From the NCBI RefSeq assembly GCF_009834535.1, contig NC_045696.1, forward strand, positions 47,804,001 through 47,868,000: a DNA stretch of 64,000 nucleotides, read 5' to 3'. A program made the translations under genes and the position numbers. Numbering within the stretch: position 1 is the first letter of the stretch; every line of letters starts with the position of its first letter. Below the pieces are notes generated by a model, which had not been told where the DNA came from, searched no databases, and saw only the letters and a program-made list of their open reading frames with translations. Source of the stretch: Camelus ferus. Lineage: Eukaryota. This document shows positions 446 through 64,000 of this stretch, in pieces.

Positions 446-2960
446 TGGGGCCAGGGAGCTCCTAAGCTGGCACTCCAATTGACCCCTGAGGATCCCCAGC
501 TGACATTGGACATAGGGGAAAAGACTGTCAAATTCTTAATTGACACCAGTGTCACTTACTTGGTTCTAAACACCAGACGAGTCACAAAAAGTGTAAAATT
601 ATGGGGCTATCAGGGAAGGGCCAAGAACAGGCATTCATAGAGCAATCAGAATGTAAACTGAGTGAACATGCGCTCTCTCATTCCTTCCTTATGTCCCCAA
701 ATGCCCTATATCTCTGCTAGAAAGAGATATCTTGCATAAATTGGGGGCTACTATCCACCTAATGGGAAACAAATTGAAGACTGGCATCCCCTTAGACAAA
801 GGGGCCTAGATGATAATGTTAATGGCTGAGGAAAAACCTCCCTGGACAGAGCAGGTTGTTCTCCCTGGAATAAATCTTGAGTAAATCAGGGACAAGGGGG
901 ACAAGTTGTAGGGGCCAGTCCTGGGATGGTCCATCTAAAACCTGGACATAATGGCCCAATAGAAAACAATATCCTCTCCCTCGGGAGGCCTTGTTGGGTA
1001 TTGCCCCTGTTATACAGGCCTAACTAGCCAGGGCCTTATTAGACCATATCAGCCAGCCGGTAATCACCTCTTTCTCCCTGTAAAGAAACCCAATAGGGAA
1101 TACTAAATAGAATAGGACCTTAGGGCAGTCAGTGAAGCCACCTGGGATATATATCGAGTAGTCCCTAATCCTTATATCCTGCTGGCCACTCTACCAGCAG
1201 GTAACTACCCTCACTTACCACATAAAATCCAGGAGCAAGTATTGGTATATGGCTCCCAAAATACCTCAACACATGCTCTGTTCTCCACCACTGCCACCGT
1301 CATCTACTCACCTGGACTAATGTGAGGAACCTCCTCCTGGTAATCTGTATTAGATTTAAAAGATGCCTTCTTCTATATTCCATTAGCCCCAGAGTCACAA
1401 GAATTTTTTCTTTTGAGTGGCAGGATACAAACATGAAACACAAAAAAGCAACACTGCTGGACAGTCCTGTCCCAAGGGTTCAAAAATTCCCCCACCATCT
1501 TTGGGGAAACTTAAGCTAAAGACCCAAAAGATATACCTCTGGAGGAGGGAACCCTCCTCCCATATATAAACAACATTCTATTTGCCAGCCCTACCAATGA
1601 GGCCTCTAACAAAAATACTGTAACCACCTTAAACTAGCCCATAAAGGATATAAGGTGTCCAAGAAAGAAGCTTGAATATCATAAACTAGGGTGACCTGCC
1701 TAGGCTTCATTCTCATAAAAAGTCAAAGAAGTCTACTCCAGGAAAGGAAAGAAGTCATTTGCGGCTTCACATCTCCTAAAACTAGAAGACAGCTTAGGAG
1801 TTTCCTGGGGGTGGCTGGGTTTAGTCCCATCTGGATCCCTAACTATGGTCTAATAGCTAGACCTCTACATGAAAAATTGAAAAGAAAGGATGATGATCCT
1901 TTTGAATGGGATTCAGAATGTGAAGGGGTCTTTCAAGAATTGAAAAAGCAATTACTTCAGGCCCTGGCCCTCCCAGATTTAGCTAAACACTTTGACTTCA
2001 ACATTCACAAAAGGGAACTTCCCTTAGGGTATTAGCTCAAAAACAAGGATTCCTTACTCCAGTGGTTGCTTATTTCTGTAAACAATTCGGTGAAACTGCT
2101 AAGGGATGGCCTCCTTGCCTACGGGTAGTAGCAGCTACTACAACCCTGCTACAGGAGGCTGAAAATTTAATGTTTGATCAGTCAGTCACTATAGGTACTC
2201 CACACCAGGTTCAGGCTTTAGTAAGTTATAAGGGAACAGAACGGCTAACCCCCAGAAGATTGATTCAAGTTCAGTCTATGCTTTTTGACAACCCAGTGGC
2301 TACCATAAAAACCTGTCATATGCTAGATCCTGCCATCCTGCTACCCACAGGGCCCCTGGAGCATAACTACAGAAACCATAGACATGATCTATTCCAGTTG
2401 CCCCAACCTAGGAAGTGAGCCTCTCCCAAATGCCAAAGAAGAATGGTTGACAAATGGAATCAGTCTTACGAGAGAGAGAAAAAGGCTGGCAGGATACGCA
2501 GTGACCTCCCAGATCCCAAGTCACAGGAGCACAAAACCTACCCCCAGGGACTTCTGCCCAAAAGGCAGAACTGATAGCCCTCACCTGAGCCTTAGAGCAG
2601 GGGACAAGGAAGATCTGAAATGTTTACATGGATTCCTGGTATGCGTATGCCATCTTACATACACACAGGCTATTATTTATAAGGAAAAAGGTATGCTTAC
2701 TGCAGAGAATAAACAGGTGAAACATGGTTTAAGCATATTGAAGCTCTTAGACGCAATACAGCTTCCAAAAAAAGGTGGCATTAATTACTGCAGATGTCAC
2801 TAAAAGGGGAATGCTGAGGTAATAAAGAGAAACAACAAGGCGGGGACACAACTGCCAAAATGGCGCCCCTAGAAGCAGTAATTTGGCAACTACCCCACAT
2901 ACCTTGAAGGCCAGATTCATCCAGTTACTCCCCAATCTACACAAAGGAAGAATTAGACCT
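446..2960 (+). pseudogene. pol: ERV pro-pol remnant (protease, RT, RNase H), frameshifted
   Basis: Retroviral Pol motifs in several frames; ends at PIYTKEELD, which resembles the start of integrase. Confidence 0.9.
1200..1335 (+). repeat. 136-bp near-identical copy of 4164-4299 inserted in the ERV RT
   Basis: Direct comparison shows 3 mismatches over 136 bp and no gaps. Confidence 0.97.
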
Positions 2961-29689: not shown

Positions 29690-30200
29690 CATCCATCTGT
29701 CTATCCATTCACTTCTTCATTCACTCATCCATCAAATACTGACTGTGTGCTCTCAAGAGCTTGGTACTGGGATAGGCACAAAGATGAAACGAAAAAGCTT
29801 GATTTGACTTTGTTTATTCAGGAGAAGCCAGGAAAAAAGACTGAGAAAGAGACTAGTGAGAAAGGAGGTCAGTCAAGGATGACGTTACAAAGAAAGGGAG
29901 TTGTTTCACGAAGAAAATAAGAATCAACTTTGTTGGATTACGTTGAGAGGTACAGTAAGATAAGAACCAGAAATATCTCTTGAAGATGACAACAAAGACA
30001 TCACTGATAACTTTGGCAAAGGCAGTTTCTGTGGAACACTGGGTAGGAAACCTGACTGGAGAGACGTGAAGGGAGAAATCAAGGAAGTAGAGATAGTAAG
30101 CATAGGCAGCTCTTTAGGGGGATTTTTTCTGACAAGATAAGCAGAGAAATGGGGAGGTATTAGGAGAGGAGTGTGCAATTTAGAGAGGGCTTTAAATTAC
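29690..30200 (-). mobile_element. L2 fragment
   Basis: cattcactcatccatcaaatactgactg; atcactgataactttggcaaaggcagtttctgtgga. Confidence 0.65.
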
Positions 30201-32539
30201 AAAAGGAACTGTGGCACGCTGAATGCTGCTGAAACTAATCTGACAGAGCCAGACAGACGGAGACACAGGAACGGGAAAGCCCTCAAAGAATCTTCTAGCT
30301 TTTGGTCTAGAACCAAGGGCCTTTGGGGAGCCATCCCCACTCCTCTCAGAGAAGGGTATGCAACCTGGCCAGGACCACGCACTGCCCTGAACCGGCCTGA
30401 GACAGACCACGCTAGAGGTGTTGCAGGGGACAGCCACAGGAGATCAAGGCACCTGGCCATGGCCTTGCACTGCTCTGGAGAGTGTCGCTGGGCTTCCTCC
30501 CTTTCCGTTCGAACATCCCCTCCTCCTCTCCCTCCCACAAAGACGGGCACCCTGAGACAGTGACAACCACCACCAAACCCCTGTGTGATGTCCCACCCCC
30601 TGCCCAGCCGGATTAGGGGTTGTCCCCTAGGTAAAAGGATTTCTGGGCTGGCCTCCCCTGCCCTTGCTGCTTGGGCCCTTATCCCTGCCCAGAACAGCCT
30701 TTCTCCAGGAATCACCGCTAGGAGATGTCCCTGTGAGCAGTAGTCCCGAGTCCTGAGGAGGAGGCCAAGAACCTTCTACATTTGAGAGGCCCTGCCACTG
30801 GAGGCTGGGTGGACACCCTGGGCCAGCCCTTTTGTTCCGGGAAATGGATCCCAGGGGCTCAGAGAATGCCCCAGCTTCTTGGGGTTCACACACATCCTGA
30901 GATACCAAGGAACTGCCTTTGCCCGAGACAAAGTTATTCCATTAAAACGTCTGCTATACTAAAAAACAGTAACAACAATACTCTCTGTTCAACGTTATCT
31001 AAATTTCTTTGGTAATTTTTTCTTATTTTGATCATTGTTACAAGTTAATAAGTGGAATATTTAATAGATTTCTCAATATCTAAATTAGGTTCATTTTTAC
31101 TAATTCAACCTTCAACTATTTTTTGGTTTTTTTTTTTTTTCCCTCATCTCTTTCATGGCTCTTAACTGGGGAAAAAAAAAAAATCCCCAGTCTGCGGAGA
31201 AGTTATCTTTAGCATAAATTTCTGACACTACTTAAAAATTATTTGAATTTGAAAAAGTTACATAAGCTGCTTTTGCTACAGTTTCATGAAAATCGGTTTA
31301 TTAGTAATACCCAATCCAAAAGCTGTTTCAAGGATTAAATGAAACACTAGTAAAGCATATAGGGTAATGCCTGATGCACATTAGAGACTCTGATAAATGT
31401 TACCTGTTATTGTAGCTATTGTTGCCTTCATCACCGTGTATCTTCATCATGGTTGTCATCATCATCATCATTTGAGGCTAAGGGAGGAGGAAAAAGGATG
31501 GCTTCAACGCAATGTCATTTGGCCTAAAACCTAGCTCCTTAGGTGGAGGTAAGGGTACACTGTCACTTTAGTTTGCCCTACCACACAAACACACATCCAT
31601 GCACATGCACATACATGCTCTCACATATACTTATAGGTTGCTCGTGTGTACAAATTCATGTCAGAATGTTAGACTTTTTAAATTTATGTTGAGGTTTTTA
31701 TTTTAAGGTATTAAGCCAAATATAATTTTCTATGAAAAATATGGATTAGCTATTTCTGAAGTCTCTATAAATTTTGTAATATGCAGTAAAAATTAACCTT
31801 TTAGTTTATTACTTTCAATTATAGCTAAAGAAAATAACAAAATAGCAAAACCAGGCTGGCCTCACCTGCAGTTGTGGATCCTTTGCTGACTGTGGAAAAG
31901 CTACTTGTCACATCTGTGTGCTTTGCCTGTCTGTACAAGTTTTTTTCAGGATGCCCTTGAAGGCTCCCAACACTGTTTATGGTTCACTGTAATTCTATTT
32001 CCTGCCAAAGCATTCCACTGTTTTATAATAAACAGAAAATATAAATTAAGAAATGCTAATTAACAAAAAACAATGTTTGAAAATGTGAGAGGACAGTTTG
32101 AAGAAAACATGGGATGTGGAATATTACAGACTGATGTTTAAACATGACTTAAAGAAATGCAAAGAATGGAATTTCATAATGTTGCCATAAACCAAAGAAA
32201 ACTACAACAAAAACATGAGCTAAAGGATGAGCACCTGACTCCCAGTCAAAGCAATGTCCTAATAGATTTGTTTCCCAAATAACCAATGCCTCACATTAGC
32301 AGTTCCAGCAAATTAAAATAAATTTAGTTTCTTTATTTGCAAAAGGTGGTTTTAAATAATCTTTACTATCTCTAGACTATTGAGGAGTGTTTAAACATCC
32401 TTAAAAGAAGTCAAGTACAAACATAGTTGAGTTCTTCTATGCCAGTGACGAAAATGACAGAGCCAGTGATAGTATTAAAATATCAATGATGAAACATGAA
32501 AGGAATCTTAGAAATAATCTCACTTAGAGGAAAACTAAG

Positions 32540-60925: not shown

Positions 60926-61718
60926 AAATTTTAAATACATGGTTTTCACTTTCCACACTTCTTTTTACTATAATGAGCATGTATTCATTTTATAATAGAA
61001 ATAAAAAGAGTAAGACAAAGGGAGGAATTTCCTCTCATTCTGAAGGTAGGACCTTCTGCTAAACAATTGGCTTAGACTCCTCAAAAAAAACTGTAATGAA
61101 AAAAATGGGGAATTGATCCTGAAAAAGTTTTAATAACTAAATATAATGTGTGAACATTGACTGGATTTTGTTTAGAAACATTTTGCACAATTGTGAACAT
61201 TTGAAAAACTCTGGTTATTAGATATTATGGATATATTATTTTCATAAGAGTGACAGTGGTACTATGTTTATGTAAAGATTTTTTTTCCTTAGGAAATACA
61301 TGCAGACAGTTTTTGGTGATAATTCATGATCTCTACAACTTTTAAATGATTTAGTAAAAAAAATGTATATATGCTATAATAACATATAGCAAATATAGAA
61401 AAATATGAGCACACTAAATTTAGGTGGAGAGGATACAGGTATTCATCATACTGTTTATAGTTCTTCTGTGTTTTAATGTTTTCAAAATGAAGGTTGGAGG
61501 CAAAAGGGGAAATTTATGACCTCTCTTCAGGAAATATGCAAACAAGCAAAGAGTGAAGTAATATTTAAAGTATCTAAAGGGGAAAAAAATCTAGAATTTT
61601 GTGTTCAGCAAAATTATCCTTCAAAAGTGGAGAAATGCCTTCTCGGACAAAAACTGAGGCAATTGGTCACCAGTAGATCTGTCTCTCAAAAAATGTTAAA
61701 AGAAATTTTTCAGAGAAG

Positions 61719-62338
61719 GGTGCGGGAAGTGGAAGGGCTGGAGAAGTTTCCCGAAGGGCGGCAGCAAGAGGCCGCTGTCACTGGACCTTACCCCTTACTT
61801 CTGTCGTCCCCGTCCCCTCGGGACCGTTGCGAAGGCCGCAGGCTCCTGCACGCCGAACACCTCTCCACCAGCGCAGCCCGGCGGGCGTGCGCCCCTAGGT
61901 CGCTCCGACCGGAACCAAAGCGGGAGCCGTGCAGGTTCCGGAGAGGTGCTGCGCCCCACTCTGGACGGAAGGGCGAGAGAGTTACTGCTCACTCTCGCCT
62001 GAGCTCCGCCCACCGATACGTCGCAGTTGTGAACCCCAATCAGCCAGGGATCTTTTGAGGATGCTCGAAAACAGCAACGATTCACATAGAATGCTGGCTC
62101 CGCTTGAATGCTTGGAGCCTTGGGAGAGACTCTGCAAAGGTCCCTAACCCAGAATATATTTACTTATTAAAAATAACAATAAACCCACTACTTGTTGATA
62201 TTATAAATGTCTTTATAAAGAATAACTATATTTTCCTAAAATGAATTTAGTCAGAAGACTGGCATTGTTTTACAAATCTTTTGCGATAACGTCTGGCTTA
62301 ATAAAGCTGGATTCTTAAAAAAAAAAAAAAAAAAAAAA
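61719..62338 (+). pseudogene. Polyadenylated retrocopy of a CpG-island-derived non-coding transcript
   Basis: Abrupt CpG-rich block 61719-~62145, then a Charlie1-like hAT fragment (~62150-62316) containing AATAAA (62300-62305), then A22 (62317-62338); sits between two contiguous halves of an L1. Confidence 0.8.
61786..62045 (-). promoter_or_regulatory. Promoter-like cassette: CCAAT box, GC box, ETS motifs, putative first exon and tandem splice donors
   Basis: ccaatcag at 62036, ccgccc at 62006-62011, cggaag at 61966-61971, ttccgg at ~61936, ccggaa at ~61909; minus-strand GTAAGG at 61793-61798 and 61786-61791. Confidence 0.6.
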
Positions 62339-64000
62339 CTTCAAAAAATACGATATAGGTCAGAAAATCAGCTCTAAAGGAAGGAAGTTTTAGAGAAGAA
62401 ATAAAGATAAAATAAAATATTTTTTTCTTATTCTTAATTGATCTAACACATAACAGTTTGTTCAAAATAAATAAATAGGTAAGTAAAATGAATGACAGCA
62501 ATGTTGTAAGGAAGTAAGAATTGGGAATACTGTATTACAAGGCACTTGTAATACTCATGAAGTGATATGTTGTTATTTGAAAGAGAACATGGATTATTCG
62601 TAATTATTTATTGCAAACTCAAGGGCAAGCACTAATAAAAAGTAGTGAAAGCATAATTGATATGCAAAGAGGGGGAAAATGGAATCAAAATGTTCAACTG
62701 AGGTAAAAAGGGAAAGAGGGGAAGATGAAAAAAATAAGAAACTAGGGCAAAAAAACAAATATAGATCTTAATCCATCTATATCAATCACTTTAAACACCA
62801 ATTTGCTAAATGACTAATCCAGAGAATAATAGAACACCCACATATCTGGGGAAAATATTTGCAAAACTATATCCAAAATATAAAAAAGAACTCTTAATAC
62901 TCAATAATAACCATTTTTTTTTTTTAATGAGCAAAAGACCTGAACAGACACCTCACCAAAATATAAAGATGGCAAATAACCCTATGGAAAGATGCTCCAC
63001 ATCATATGTCACTAGGGAATTGCAAATTAAAAGGAGTTACTACTACACACCTTTTAGAATGGTCAAAATCCAAAGCACTGACAACCCCAAATGCTGGTGA
63101 GGATGTGGAGCAGAAGGAACCCTCATTCATTGCTGGTGGGAATGTAAAATAGTATAGCCACCTTGGAAAACAGTTTGGCAGTTTCTTACAAAACTAAACA
63201 CACTCGTATAATTCAGAAATCATGCTCCTTGGTATTTACCCAAATGAGTTGAAAATGTATGTTCACACAAAAACCTGAACACAAATGTTTATAGCAGCTT
63301 TTCTCATAATTGCCAAAACTTGGAAGCAACGAAGGTGCCTTCAATATGTGGATGAATAAATTATTGTACATCCAGACAATATAATATTCAGCATTAAAAA
63401 GAAGTGAGCTCTCCAAGCATGAAAAAAAACATGGAAGAACCTCAAATACACATTGCTGTGAAAGAAGTCAATCTGAAAAGGCTATTGTATGATTCCAACT
63501 GTATGACATTCTGTAAAAATGCAAAGCTATGGAGACAGTAAGAGGATCAGTGGTCAGGGGTAGAGGGGAAGAAGTGTTAAATAGGTGGAGCACAGGGCAT
63601 TTGTATAGGGCAGTGAAACTATTTTGTATGGTGGGTATATGTCATTATACACTGATCAAAACCCCCAGGATGAATGACACAAAGAATGAGACCTAATGTA
63701 AACTATGGGCTTTGGGTGATAATGATGGGTCAATGTAGGTTCAACAACCGTACCACTCGGGTGCAGGATGTTGATAGTAGAGGATATGGGGAAATGGAGG
63801 AGGAGGTAGTGTTTGAGAGCTGTTTTCTGAAAGCCTAGAACTGCTTTAAAAATCTATTAATTAAAACAAAACCAAATTATATTCTATATAGCTAATACTT
63901 GAAGCAGTAGCAGTCACTCTTTGGTAAACCTCAGCACAGAATCCAGACATTCCCATCTCTACTCAAGGCATCAGGCAACACTGAGGATGGCTAGGACAGA

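Follow-up and report, generated by a model that had tools for sequence, protein, structure and literature searches.

An insert in an old L1 of Camelus ferus: probably an ancient retrocopy of an RNA antisense to NSUN4 that carries the NSUN4 promoter

A stretch of 64,000 bp from Camelus ferus (NC_045696.1, positions 47,804,001 to 47,868,000; here contig C1), referred to below as the window, contains an insert at 61720-62338 that lies inside an old L1 element and ends in a poly(A) tail. Coordinates are those of the window unless preceded by C13, the contig of the same 2.09-Gb assembly on which the parent of the insert was found. The insert is probably an old retrocopy of an RNA antisense to NSUN4, a mitochondrial rRNA 5-methylcytosine methyltransferase gene, and carries the promoter of that gene in a form that is still CpG-island-like.

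The 3' end of the insert consists of a poly(A) signal (AATAAA, 62300-62305), an 11-nt spacer (62306-62316) and a pure run of 22 adenines (A22, 62317-62338). Only three A or T runs of at least 15 nt occur in the window, and the sole run of at least 20 nt is this A22. The minus strand of the insert carries GTAAGG twice (61786-61791 and 61793-61798; CCTTAC on the plus strand). A GC box (CCGCCC, 62006-62011), a CCAAT box (62036-62040) and several CCGGAA/TTCCGG/CGGAA motifs (61900-61970) are also present, and all of these elements lie where the first-pass annotation of the sequence had placed them. The names given here to the ETS-type and other promoter motifs are presumed ones.

The insert contains 36 CpG in 597 bp (observed/expected 0.88) and the window 316 in 64,000 bp (observed/expected 0.16), in agreement with the initial description of a CpG-dense insert in a CpG-depleted window. 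The top five 300-bp bins for CpG across the window all fall within 61601-62300. CpG islands of the Gardiner-Garden type are at least 200 bp long, with a GC content of at least 50% and an observed/expected ratio of at least 0.6; positions 61720-62060 (341 bp, GC 65.7%, 31 CpG, observed/expected 0.84) form such an island.

The left half of the host L1 (61480-61719, plus strand) ends in ...TTTTTCAGAGAAGG and the right half (62352-62500, plus strand) starts with GATATAGGTCAGAAA..., joined to the left half in other copies. Positions 61500-61719 match L1 copies at 70-80% identity (best 40 of 328 candidates scored). Both flanks are matched by eight of the 11 L1 copies that were fetched, and the flanks adjoin in all six copies aligned. 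The insert thus splits an L1 whose halves join up, as had been noticed from the letters alone. Uninterrupted L1 copies read ...TTCTTCAGAGAGAAGG AAAATGATATAGGTCAGAAA... across the insertion point, i.e. ...TTCTTCAGAGAGAAGGAAAATGATATAGGTCAGAAA..., and 2 nt (GG) are common to the insert and the L1 target at the 5' join. A MAFFT alignment with the L1 copies revealed no perfect target-site duplication in the two flanks of the insert. The right flank starts with CTTCAAAAAATAC, which MAFFT puts on the CTTCAGAGA... of the L1, a sequence already present in the left half. This segment (62339-62351, plus strand; CTTCAAAAAATAC compared with ...TTTCAGAGAAGG), which runs into the right L1 half, is probably a decayed target-site duplication rather than a clean one.

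Between 0.97 and 0.99 of 76 31-mers sampled from 61650-62400 are present in the contigs of runs X1-X14. They include runs from three studies that are not flagged as a possible source (X2; X3, which is from a second organism; and X8-X11). Because the 31-mers occur in independent runs, the junctions can be taken as real and the insert as present in at least two closely related organisms. Misassembly was rejected because the contigs of independent runs contain both junctions. A native promoter at the window site was likewise rejected, as the insert splits an L1 and bears a poly(A).

The assembly was queried with 61719-62316 and with 61719-62153; in one of these searches, both of the two candidates were scored, one being the window itself. 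The first 434 nt of the insert have a single homologue, at C13:33396580-33397013 on the opposite strand. The parent locus forms a native CpG island with an observed/expected ratio of 0.91 (42 CpG per 500 bp), and the poly(A), the A22 and the L1 flanks are all absent there. The plus strand of C13 codes for MAALVVRGVRDMLKRADFATVPRRHRHKKKW followed by GTAAGG; exon 1 encodes M1-W31 and ends in ...AAA TGG|GTAAGG, with the ATG at C13:33396847 and the donor GT at C13:33396940. The encoded peptide is similar to residues 1-35 of NSUN4 in PDB 7o9k (E-value: 3.7e-10). An open frame 4 kb downstream of exon 1 matches NSUN4 in 4fzv, 4fp9 and 7o9k (E-value: 1.3e-62), and a further exon matches the Pfam RsmB/F methyltransferase family with 26.2 bits, slightly below the 27-bit cut-off. 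Because exon 1 and the next exon match solved NSUN4 structures, the parent can be identified as NSUN4, with the matched stretch covering its promoter, its first exon and the beginning of intron 1. A parent at the CpG-island promoter, first exon and donor of a gene, lacking the A22, had been predicted before any search, and the only match in the same genome has these features.

The homology spans from 73 nt inside intron 1 (33397013) back to 267 nt upstream of the ATG (33396580). NSUN4 is transcribed in the direction opposite to the poly(A) of the insert, so that the orientation is antisense, as proposed; neither a parent reading in the same direction as the poly(A) nor a lack of any parent, both of which would speak against an antisense template, was found.

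The match of copy to parent can be followed segment by segment, each on the minus strand of the window. Positions 61720-61791 correspond to the first ~73 nt of NSUN4 intron 1 and form the 5' end of the retrocopied RNA (67 of 74 sites, or 90.5%, identical to C13:33397013-33396940). The GTAAGG at 61786-61791 is the equivalent of the NSUN4 exon 1 donor (G|GTAAGGTCCAGTGACAGC) and is covered by a 20-nt block (61774-61793) identical to C13:33396957-33396938. The adjoining segment (61792-61880) is decayed NSUN4 exon 1 coding sequence, codons 1-31, with 66 of 93 sites identical (71%) and four gap columns. Most of the ~170 nt that had been read as resembling a 5' untranslated region (5'UTR) is in fact these decayed codons. 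The copy cannot encode the NSUN4 peptide, because CGG stands in place of the ATG (61878-61880), a 4-nt gap breaks the frame and an in-frame TAA is present.

In the equivalent of the 5'UTR and core promoter of NSUN4 (61881-62060), 79% of the sites are identical (136 of 172). Conserved within it are ETS-type sites at 61904-61916 and 61931-61940, an 18-nt block at 61950-61967 and the GC box with its flank at 62003-62022. The NSUN4 distal upstream equivalent follows at 62061-62153 (63 of 91 sites, 69%), the homology stopping at ...CCCTAACCCAG (62142-62152). The copy therefore includes 267 nt upstream of the NSUN4 ATG, with the GC-box and ETS-type blocks. The CCAAT box of the copy is absent from the parent, which reads CCCCGCCCAG there. 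Besides the two ETS-type blocks, the identical blocks are the donor block GGGTAAGGTCCAGTGACAGC, the sequence CGTCCAGAGTGGGGCGCA and, at the GC box, GACGTATCGGTGGGCGGAGC. Five identical runs of at least 15 nt occur, a count reached in 18 of 5000 column shuffles; the longest of them, at 20 nt, is of unremarkable length (1434 of 5000 shuffles).

When copy and parent are aligned, 11 columns contain gaps and 332 of the 430 ungapped sites agree (77.2%); another alignment gives 336 identical columns of 440. The differences comprise 49 transitions and 49 transversions and correspond to a Jukes-Cantor (JC) distance of 0.27. L1 copies are ~73% identical in pairwise comparison, slightly more diverged than the copy and its parent. 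Other L1 copies are 70-80% identical to the flank of the host element, so the order of events is coherent. The parent had been expected to show high identity, and the retained CpG and clean tail had been taken to suggest a recent insertion or an unmethylated state. Neither the high identity nor a recent insertion was borne out: the 77% identity, the lost ATG and frame, the apparently decayed target-site duplication and the age of the host L1 agree that the insertion is old, on the order of tens of millions of years. At a neutral rate of ~2.2e-9 per site per year, its age would be roughly 60 million years. A metagenome scan with a conserved 20-mer returned one contig (L041) with a common sequence of 21 nt only, which is of no use for dating.

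In spite of this age, the copy has retained its CpG and GC. The aligned copy and parent have 34 CpG each, with 18 in common and 15 private to each. TG or CA is found at six of the 15 lost CpG on either side. CpG conservation is 18/33 (0.55), compared with 0.60 expected from the per-site identity squared, so CpG sites have been no more mutable than other sites in either lineage. The GC content is 62.6% in the copy, 59.8% in the parent and 35% in the window. Where the two differ, the copy has G/C and the parent A/T at 46 sites, with the reverse at 32, and hence no drift to AT. Because CpG decay is lacking and the private CpG are symmetric, the copy is probably unmethylated in the germ line and probably behaves as an autonomous CpG island.

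The last 163 nt before the tail (62154-62316, plus strand) have a different origin. They are an internal piece of an old DNA transposon, presumably of the non-autonomous hAT-Charlie type, and contain the AATAAA at the RNA 3' end. Among the best 40 of 70 candidates genome-wide, 39 other copies are listed, dispersed and 69-84% identical. These copies extend beyond this piece on both sides, and in some of them CAGTGGTTCTCAAAC lies some 125-150 nt upstream, with the inverse sequence downstream. An L1 3' end was considered as a source of this segment and rejected, since the copies run past the poly(A) site and have inverted termini. Other copies read CTTAATAGAAGACAGCTGGATTCTCATATC where the window reads CTTAATAAAGCTGGATTCTT followed by A22, which places the poly(A) signal and the cleavage site within the hAT element. 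As the other copies go on with CATATCTGCTTC..., the A22 (62317-62338, plus strand) was not templated by the transposon.

Within this hAT-derived part, window positions 62282-62293 read GCGATAACGTCT and contain two CpG. At the AACG position the window keeps CG, and six other transposon copies read T-G, C-A, G-G or T-A. This hints at low methylation ~230 bp past the island core, or at a protected source copy.

The join between the two parts of the insert suggests how they may have been brought together. Past the end of the homology, C13 reads TTGAGTCAGGTAGG, so that the 9-mer across the boundary, CAG|TTGAGT, differs at a single position from the donor consensus MAG|GTRAGT. In 180 kb of that strand, 88 of 179,991 positions have such a 9-mer, as do two of 992 in the island. 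A chance break at a donor-like 9-mer is therefore unlikely, and a spliced two-exon antisense RNA is favoured as the template; given that the insert is a retrocopy of NSUN4-antisense RNA at all, such a template has about an even chance of being the right one. The original proposal of an antisense transcript running from intron 1 back across the transcription start site is supported for the stretch from 73 nt of intron 1 to 267 nt upstream of the ATG. Its second half, a continuous RNA polyadenylated just upstream, is not supported: the hAT piece joins at a donor-like site, and no homologue of it was found around NSUN4 exon 1, in 110 kb on the upstream and 70 kb on the downstream side.

The proposed sequence of events is as follows. 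A polyadenylated non-coding RNA antisense to NSUN4 would have started in or before the first ~73 nt of intron 1 and crossed, in turn, the donor of exon 1, its 31 codons, the 5'UTR and the core promoter, as far as 267 nt upstream of the ATG. Splicing would then, most likely, have joined a donor of the CAG|GTGAGT type to a terminal exon in a hAT-type transposon, the source of the AATAAA and of the cleavage site. The L1 machinery would have put the complementary DNA (cDNA) into an older L1 on C1. With an antisense template, the resulting copy would bear a complete NSUN4 module of promoter, exon 1 and donor, pointing leftward in the window. After insertion, the coding part would have decayed while the GC content, the CpG density and the main promoter blocks were kept. 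A candidate promoter for such an RNA lies in NSUN4 intron 1 (C13:33397050-33397220; L011:451-621), where two tandem units each contain a CRE-like (cAMP response element-like) GATGACGTAAC and a GC box GGGGCGGAG. These units are just upstream, in the antisense direction, of the retrocopy start, and are compatible with a promoter of the antisense RNA or of the nested open frame described below.

Several observations weigh against this model. The CAG|TTGAGT mismatch falls on the essential +1 G, so the donor is dead in the present parent, and a G-to-T change in the C13 donor after the event must be assumed. In other copies of the transposon, the bases ahead of the join are A-rich and lack a pyrimidine tract, and would make a poor acceptor. 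A homologue of 62154-62316 was not found in the 110 kb upstream or the 70 kb downstream of NSUN4 exon 1. In particular, a sensitive blastn search against C13:33286600-33406599 (120 kb) gave no match at E <=1, and one against C13:33396600-33466599 (70 kb) gave only a 42-nt match (E-value: 0.027), in searches whose positive controls, known transposon copies, were found with E-values of 1e-19 to 1e-22. An earlier 20-kb search near the parent had returned short chance matches only, and no C13 copy of the hAT piece is among the best 40 of the 70 genome-wide candidates. The clustering of identical blocks could be produced by constraint on the parent alone. Finally, a tail as pure as A22 and an undamaged AATAAA fit poorly with a JC distance of ~0.27, although the A run may have been preserved or restored by slippage.

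The absence of a nearby hAT element could be accommodated by template switching, in which reverse transcriptase would have started on the poly(A) of an unrelated hAT-ended RNA and, after 163 nt, jumped to an unspliced ~434-nt NSUN4 upstream-antisense RNA. The two parts are non-colinear at the parent, the hAT piece was not found within 180 kb of NSUN4, and the two parts agree in orientation and share a single poly(A), like the chimeras described in the available text of PMC4476161. In that text, such U6/L1 chimeras likewise combine two unrelated sequences in the same orientation with one poly(A). The present insert does not belong to this class, its 5' part being antisense to an RNA polymerase II (Pol II) promoter rather than a small nuclear RNA and its 3' part being derived from hAT rather than L1. 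Moreover, the break would have to fall exactly at a near-consensus 5' splice site, a motif found at ~5 in 10,000 positions; a join at such a donor-like site is unlike the U6/L1 type. Validated cases are also, as far as the same text goes, largely limited to U6 or U6atac as the 5' partner, which lowers this alternative further. Template switching is thus an unlikely rival and ranks below a spliced template. It would leave the core conclusion standing, namely that the promoter was carried by an antisense RNA.

A continuous, unspliced antisense transcript is the simplest template of all. It would have read through into a hAT element then located just upstream of NSUN4, with a later deletion or rearrangement in the parent or the retrocopy, and tens of millions of years do allow deletions upstream of the gene. 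The end-point of the deletion would, however, need to fall by chance exactly on the donor-like 9-mer, and the parent sequence runs on without a trace of the hAT element. This reading is considered improbable.

Equally improbable is a recent origin from a closer parent, either missing from the assembly or lost, with the C13 NSUN4 only a distant relative. The pure A22, the intact AATAAA, the observed/expected CpG ratio of 0.88 and the lack of AT drift would all fit a young copy. Against this, only one homologue exists in 2.09 Gb and a clean target-site duplication was not seen. For the missing parent, one would have to postulate a copy of the NSUN4 5' region that had lost its ATG and frame yet kept its island intact, which just moves the problem elsewhere and is less parsimonious than an old, unmethylated copy. 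NSUN4 is not known to be present in more than one copy in mammals.

A twin-priming inversion of sense NSUN4 pre-mRNA, or a DNA patch beside an unrelated retrocopy, would dispense with the antisense RNA altogether but is very improbable: twin priming is known to invert 5' segments inside one insertion (as noted in the part of PMC4476161 available), yet here one would need a sense RNA that begins upstream of the promoter, escapes splicing and terminates in this hAT element, of which no copy was found in the 70 kb downstream that covers the rest of the gene region searched, and a DNA patch needs two events at one spot and leaves the break at the donor-like site unexplained. The core conclusion survives every one of these rivals except twin priming and DNA capture. 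A retrocopy of NSUN4-antisense RNA that carries the promoter is accordingly retained as the probable explanation.

Retrocopies are usually described as promoterless on arrival, and the known exceptions are sense transcripts that start slightly upstream. The window copy appears to have taken a different route, in which the promoter, exon 1 and donor, but no gene body, are copied by way of an antisense RNA that crosses a bidirectional CpG-island promoter. The copied module is exactly what a new spliced transcript needs in order to start. Literature searches found no description of such a module carried by an antisense RNA, and a search for an NSUN4 antisense transcript found nothing.

The closest known cases concern sense transcripts. 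A promoter can be retrotransposed when the sense transcript starts upstream of it (Okamura and Nakai 2008, PMC2386082). As in the window copy, a core promoter is then transcribed, reverse-transcribed and inserted elsewhere. The cases in the available text of that paper involve a sense mRNA, with the promoter in front of the copied coding sequence. The window copy differs in deriving from an antisense RNA, in comprising the promoter, exon 1 and donor without the gene body, and in having its promoter face away from the poly(A). The sole passage of that text with the word 'antisense' is about harm from insertions and not about an antisense route. Inheritance of the parental promoter is rare, at ~3% of expressed retrocopies, according to the portion of Carelli et al. 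(2016, PMC4772013) that was available. There too, parental promoter sequence lies inside the retrocopy; the cases given involve an upstream alternative promoter of a sense transcript and expression supported by CAGE.

A retrocopy can also bring with it a CpG island that acts as a promoter, its fate depending on its sequence and integration site (Rademacher et al. 2014, PMC4122923, as far as its available text goes). The island in intron 2 of RB1 lies in PPP1R26P1, a truncated PPP1R26 retrocopy (available text of PMC3839921). It resembles the present one as a retrocopy-borne island that may stay unmethylated and serve as a promoter (PMC4122923, same portion). The window island would be the parent's own promoter, transferred by an antisense RNA, whereas the RB1 island is described in the part of PMC3839921 at hand as part of PPP1R26P1. 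Spliced, polyadenylated non-coding RNAs such as MIR302CHG have been retrocopied by L1 (available sections of PMC7692494). In these, as apparently here, a non-coding Pol II transcript was copied by L1 and its exon structure recorded. The same sections report the MIR302CHG-type copies as lacking core promoter elements, in contrast to the window copy, which spans the promoter of the gene on the opposite strand. Relative to the known sense-transcript cases, the antisense route to a retrocopied promoter would be new, a claim that rests on one locus.

Transcription of the copy is hinted at by runs labelled RNA or possibly RNA, which contain 0.87, 0.40 (X16) and 0.32 (X17) of the sampled 31-mers. These 31-mers cannot derive from NSUN4, because the longest identical run is 20 nt. 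RNA libraries can include DNA, and the matches are a hint only. A further three RNA runs (X18-X20) contain 0.05-0.09 of the sampled words and were counted as no evidence. A bolder possibility, to be held tentatively and on balance doubtful, is that the copy has been an active, probably bidirectional, unmethylated promoter for tens of millions of years, in an AT-rich region poor in genes, and seeds a lineage-specific transcript from its GTAAGG donor, with antisense RNAs serving as vehicles for complete promoter modules. If this were true, the locus would illustrate in nature how orphan CpG islands and novel first exons can arise. Should there be further cases, the antisense route could explain some orphan CpG islands and some alternative first exons. 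With 23% divergence and with its CpG and GC kept in surroundings of 35% GC, the copy also offers a natural long-running test of whether a promoter island protects itself from methylation at a foreign site. In addition, it would document an ancient transcript antisense to NSUN4, perhaps including an exon since lost.

Intron 1 of NSUN4 contains a further feature. A 944-codon open frame (C13:33397228-33400062; L011:629-3463, plus strand) encodes a proline/serine-rich product that ends in SKSPRH/SRSRS-type repeats. It starts ~215 bp past the position in the parent that corresponds to the 5' end of the retrocopy, and has a GC content of ~53% and an observed/expected CpG ratio of 0.03. The frame has no Pfam family and no usable Atlas match. 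It is far longer than chance openness would allow, and may represent a nested gene, perhaps of testis type, or a long alternative exon.

Four more CpG islands occur near NSUN4 (C13:33380100-33382100, 33343600-33344350, 33312850-33316350 and 33428100-33429100), up to 110 kb from the NSUN4 island on its upstream side and up to 32 kb on its downstream side. They are unrelated to the insert and presumably represent promoters of nearby genes.

Elsewhere in the window, positions 1685-2800 (plus strand) contain retroviral pol-like open frames (e.g. ...FLGVAGFSPIWIPNYGLIARPLHEKLK...) and appear to derive from a degraded fragment of an endogenous retrovirus. Apart from the insert, a single GC-rich patch occurs in the window, a region of ~800 bp at 30141-30941 (GC 57-61%), which is CpG-poor (observed/expected 0.22-0.31) and has open frames of 140-192 codons on both strands.

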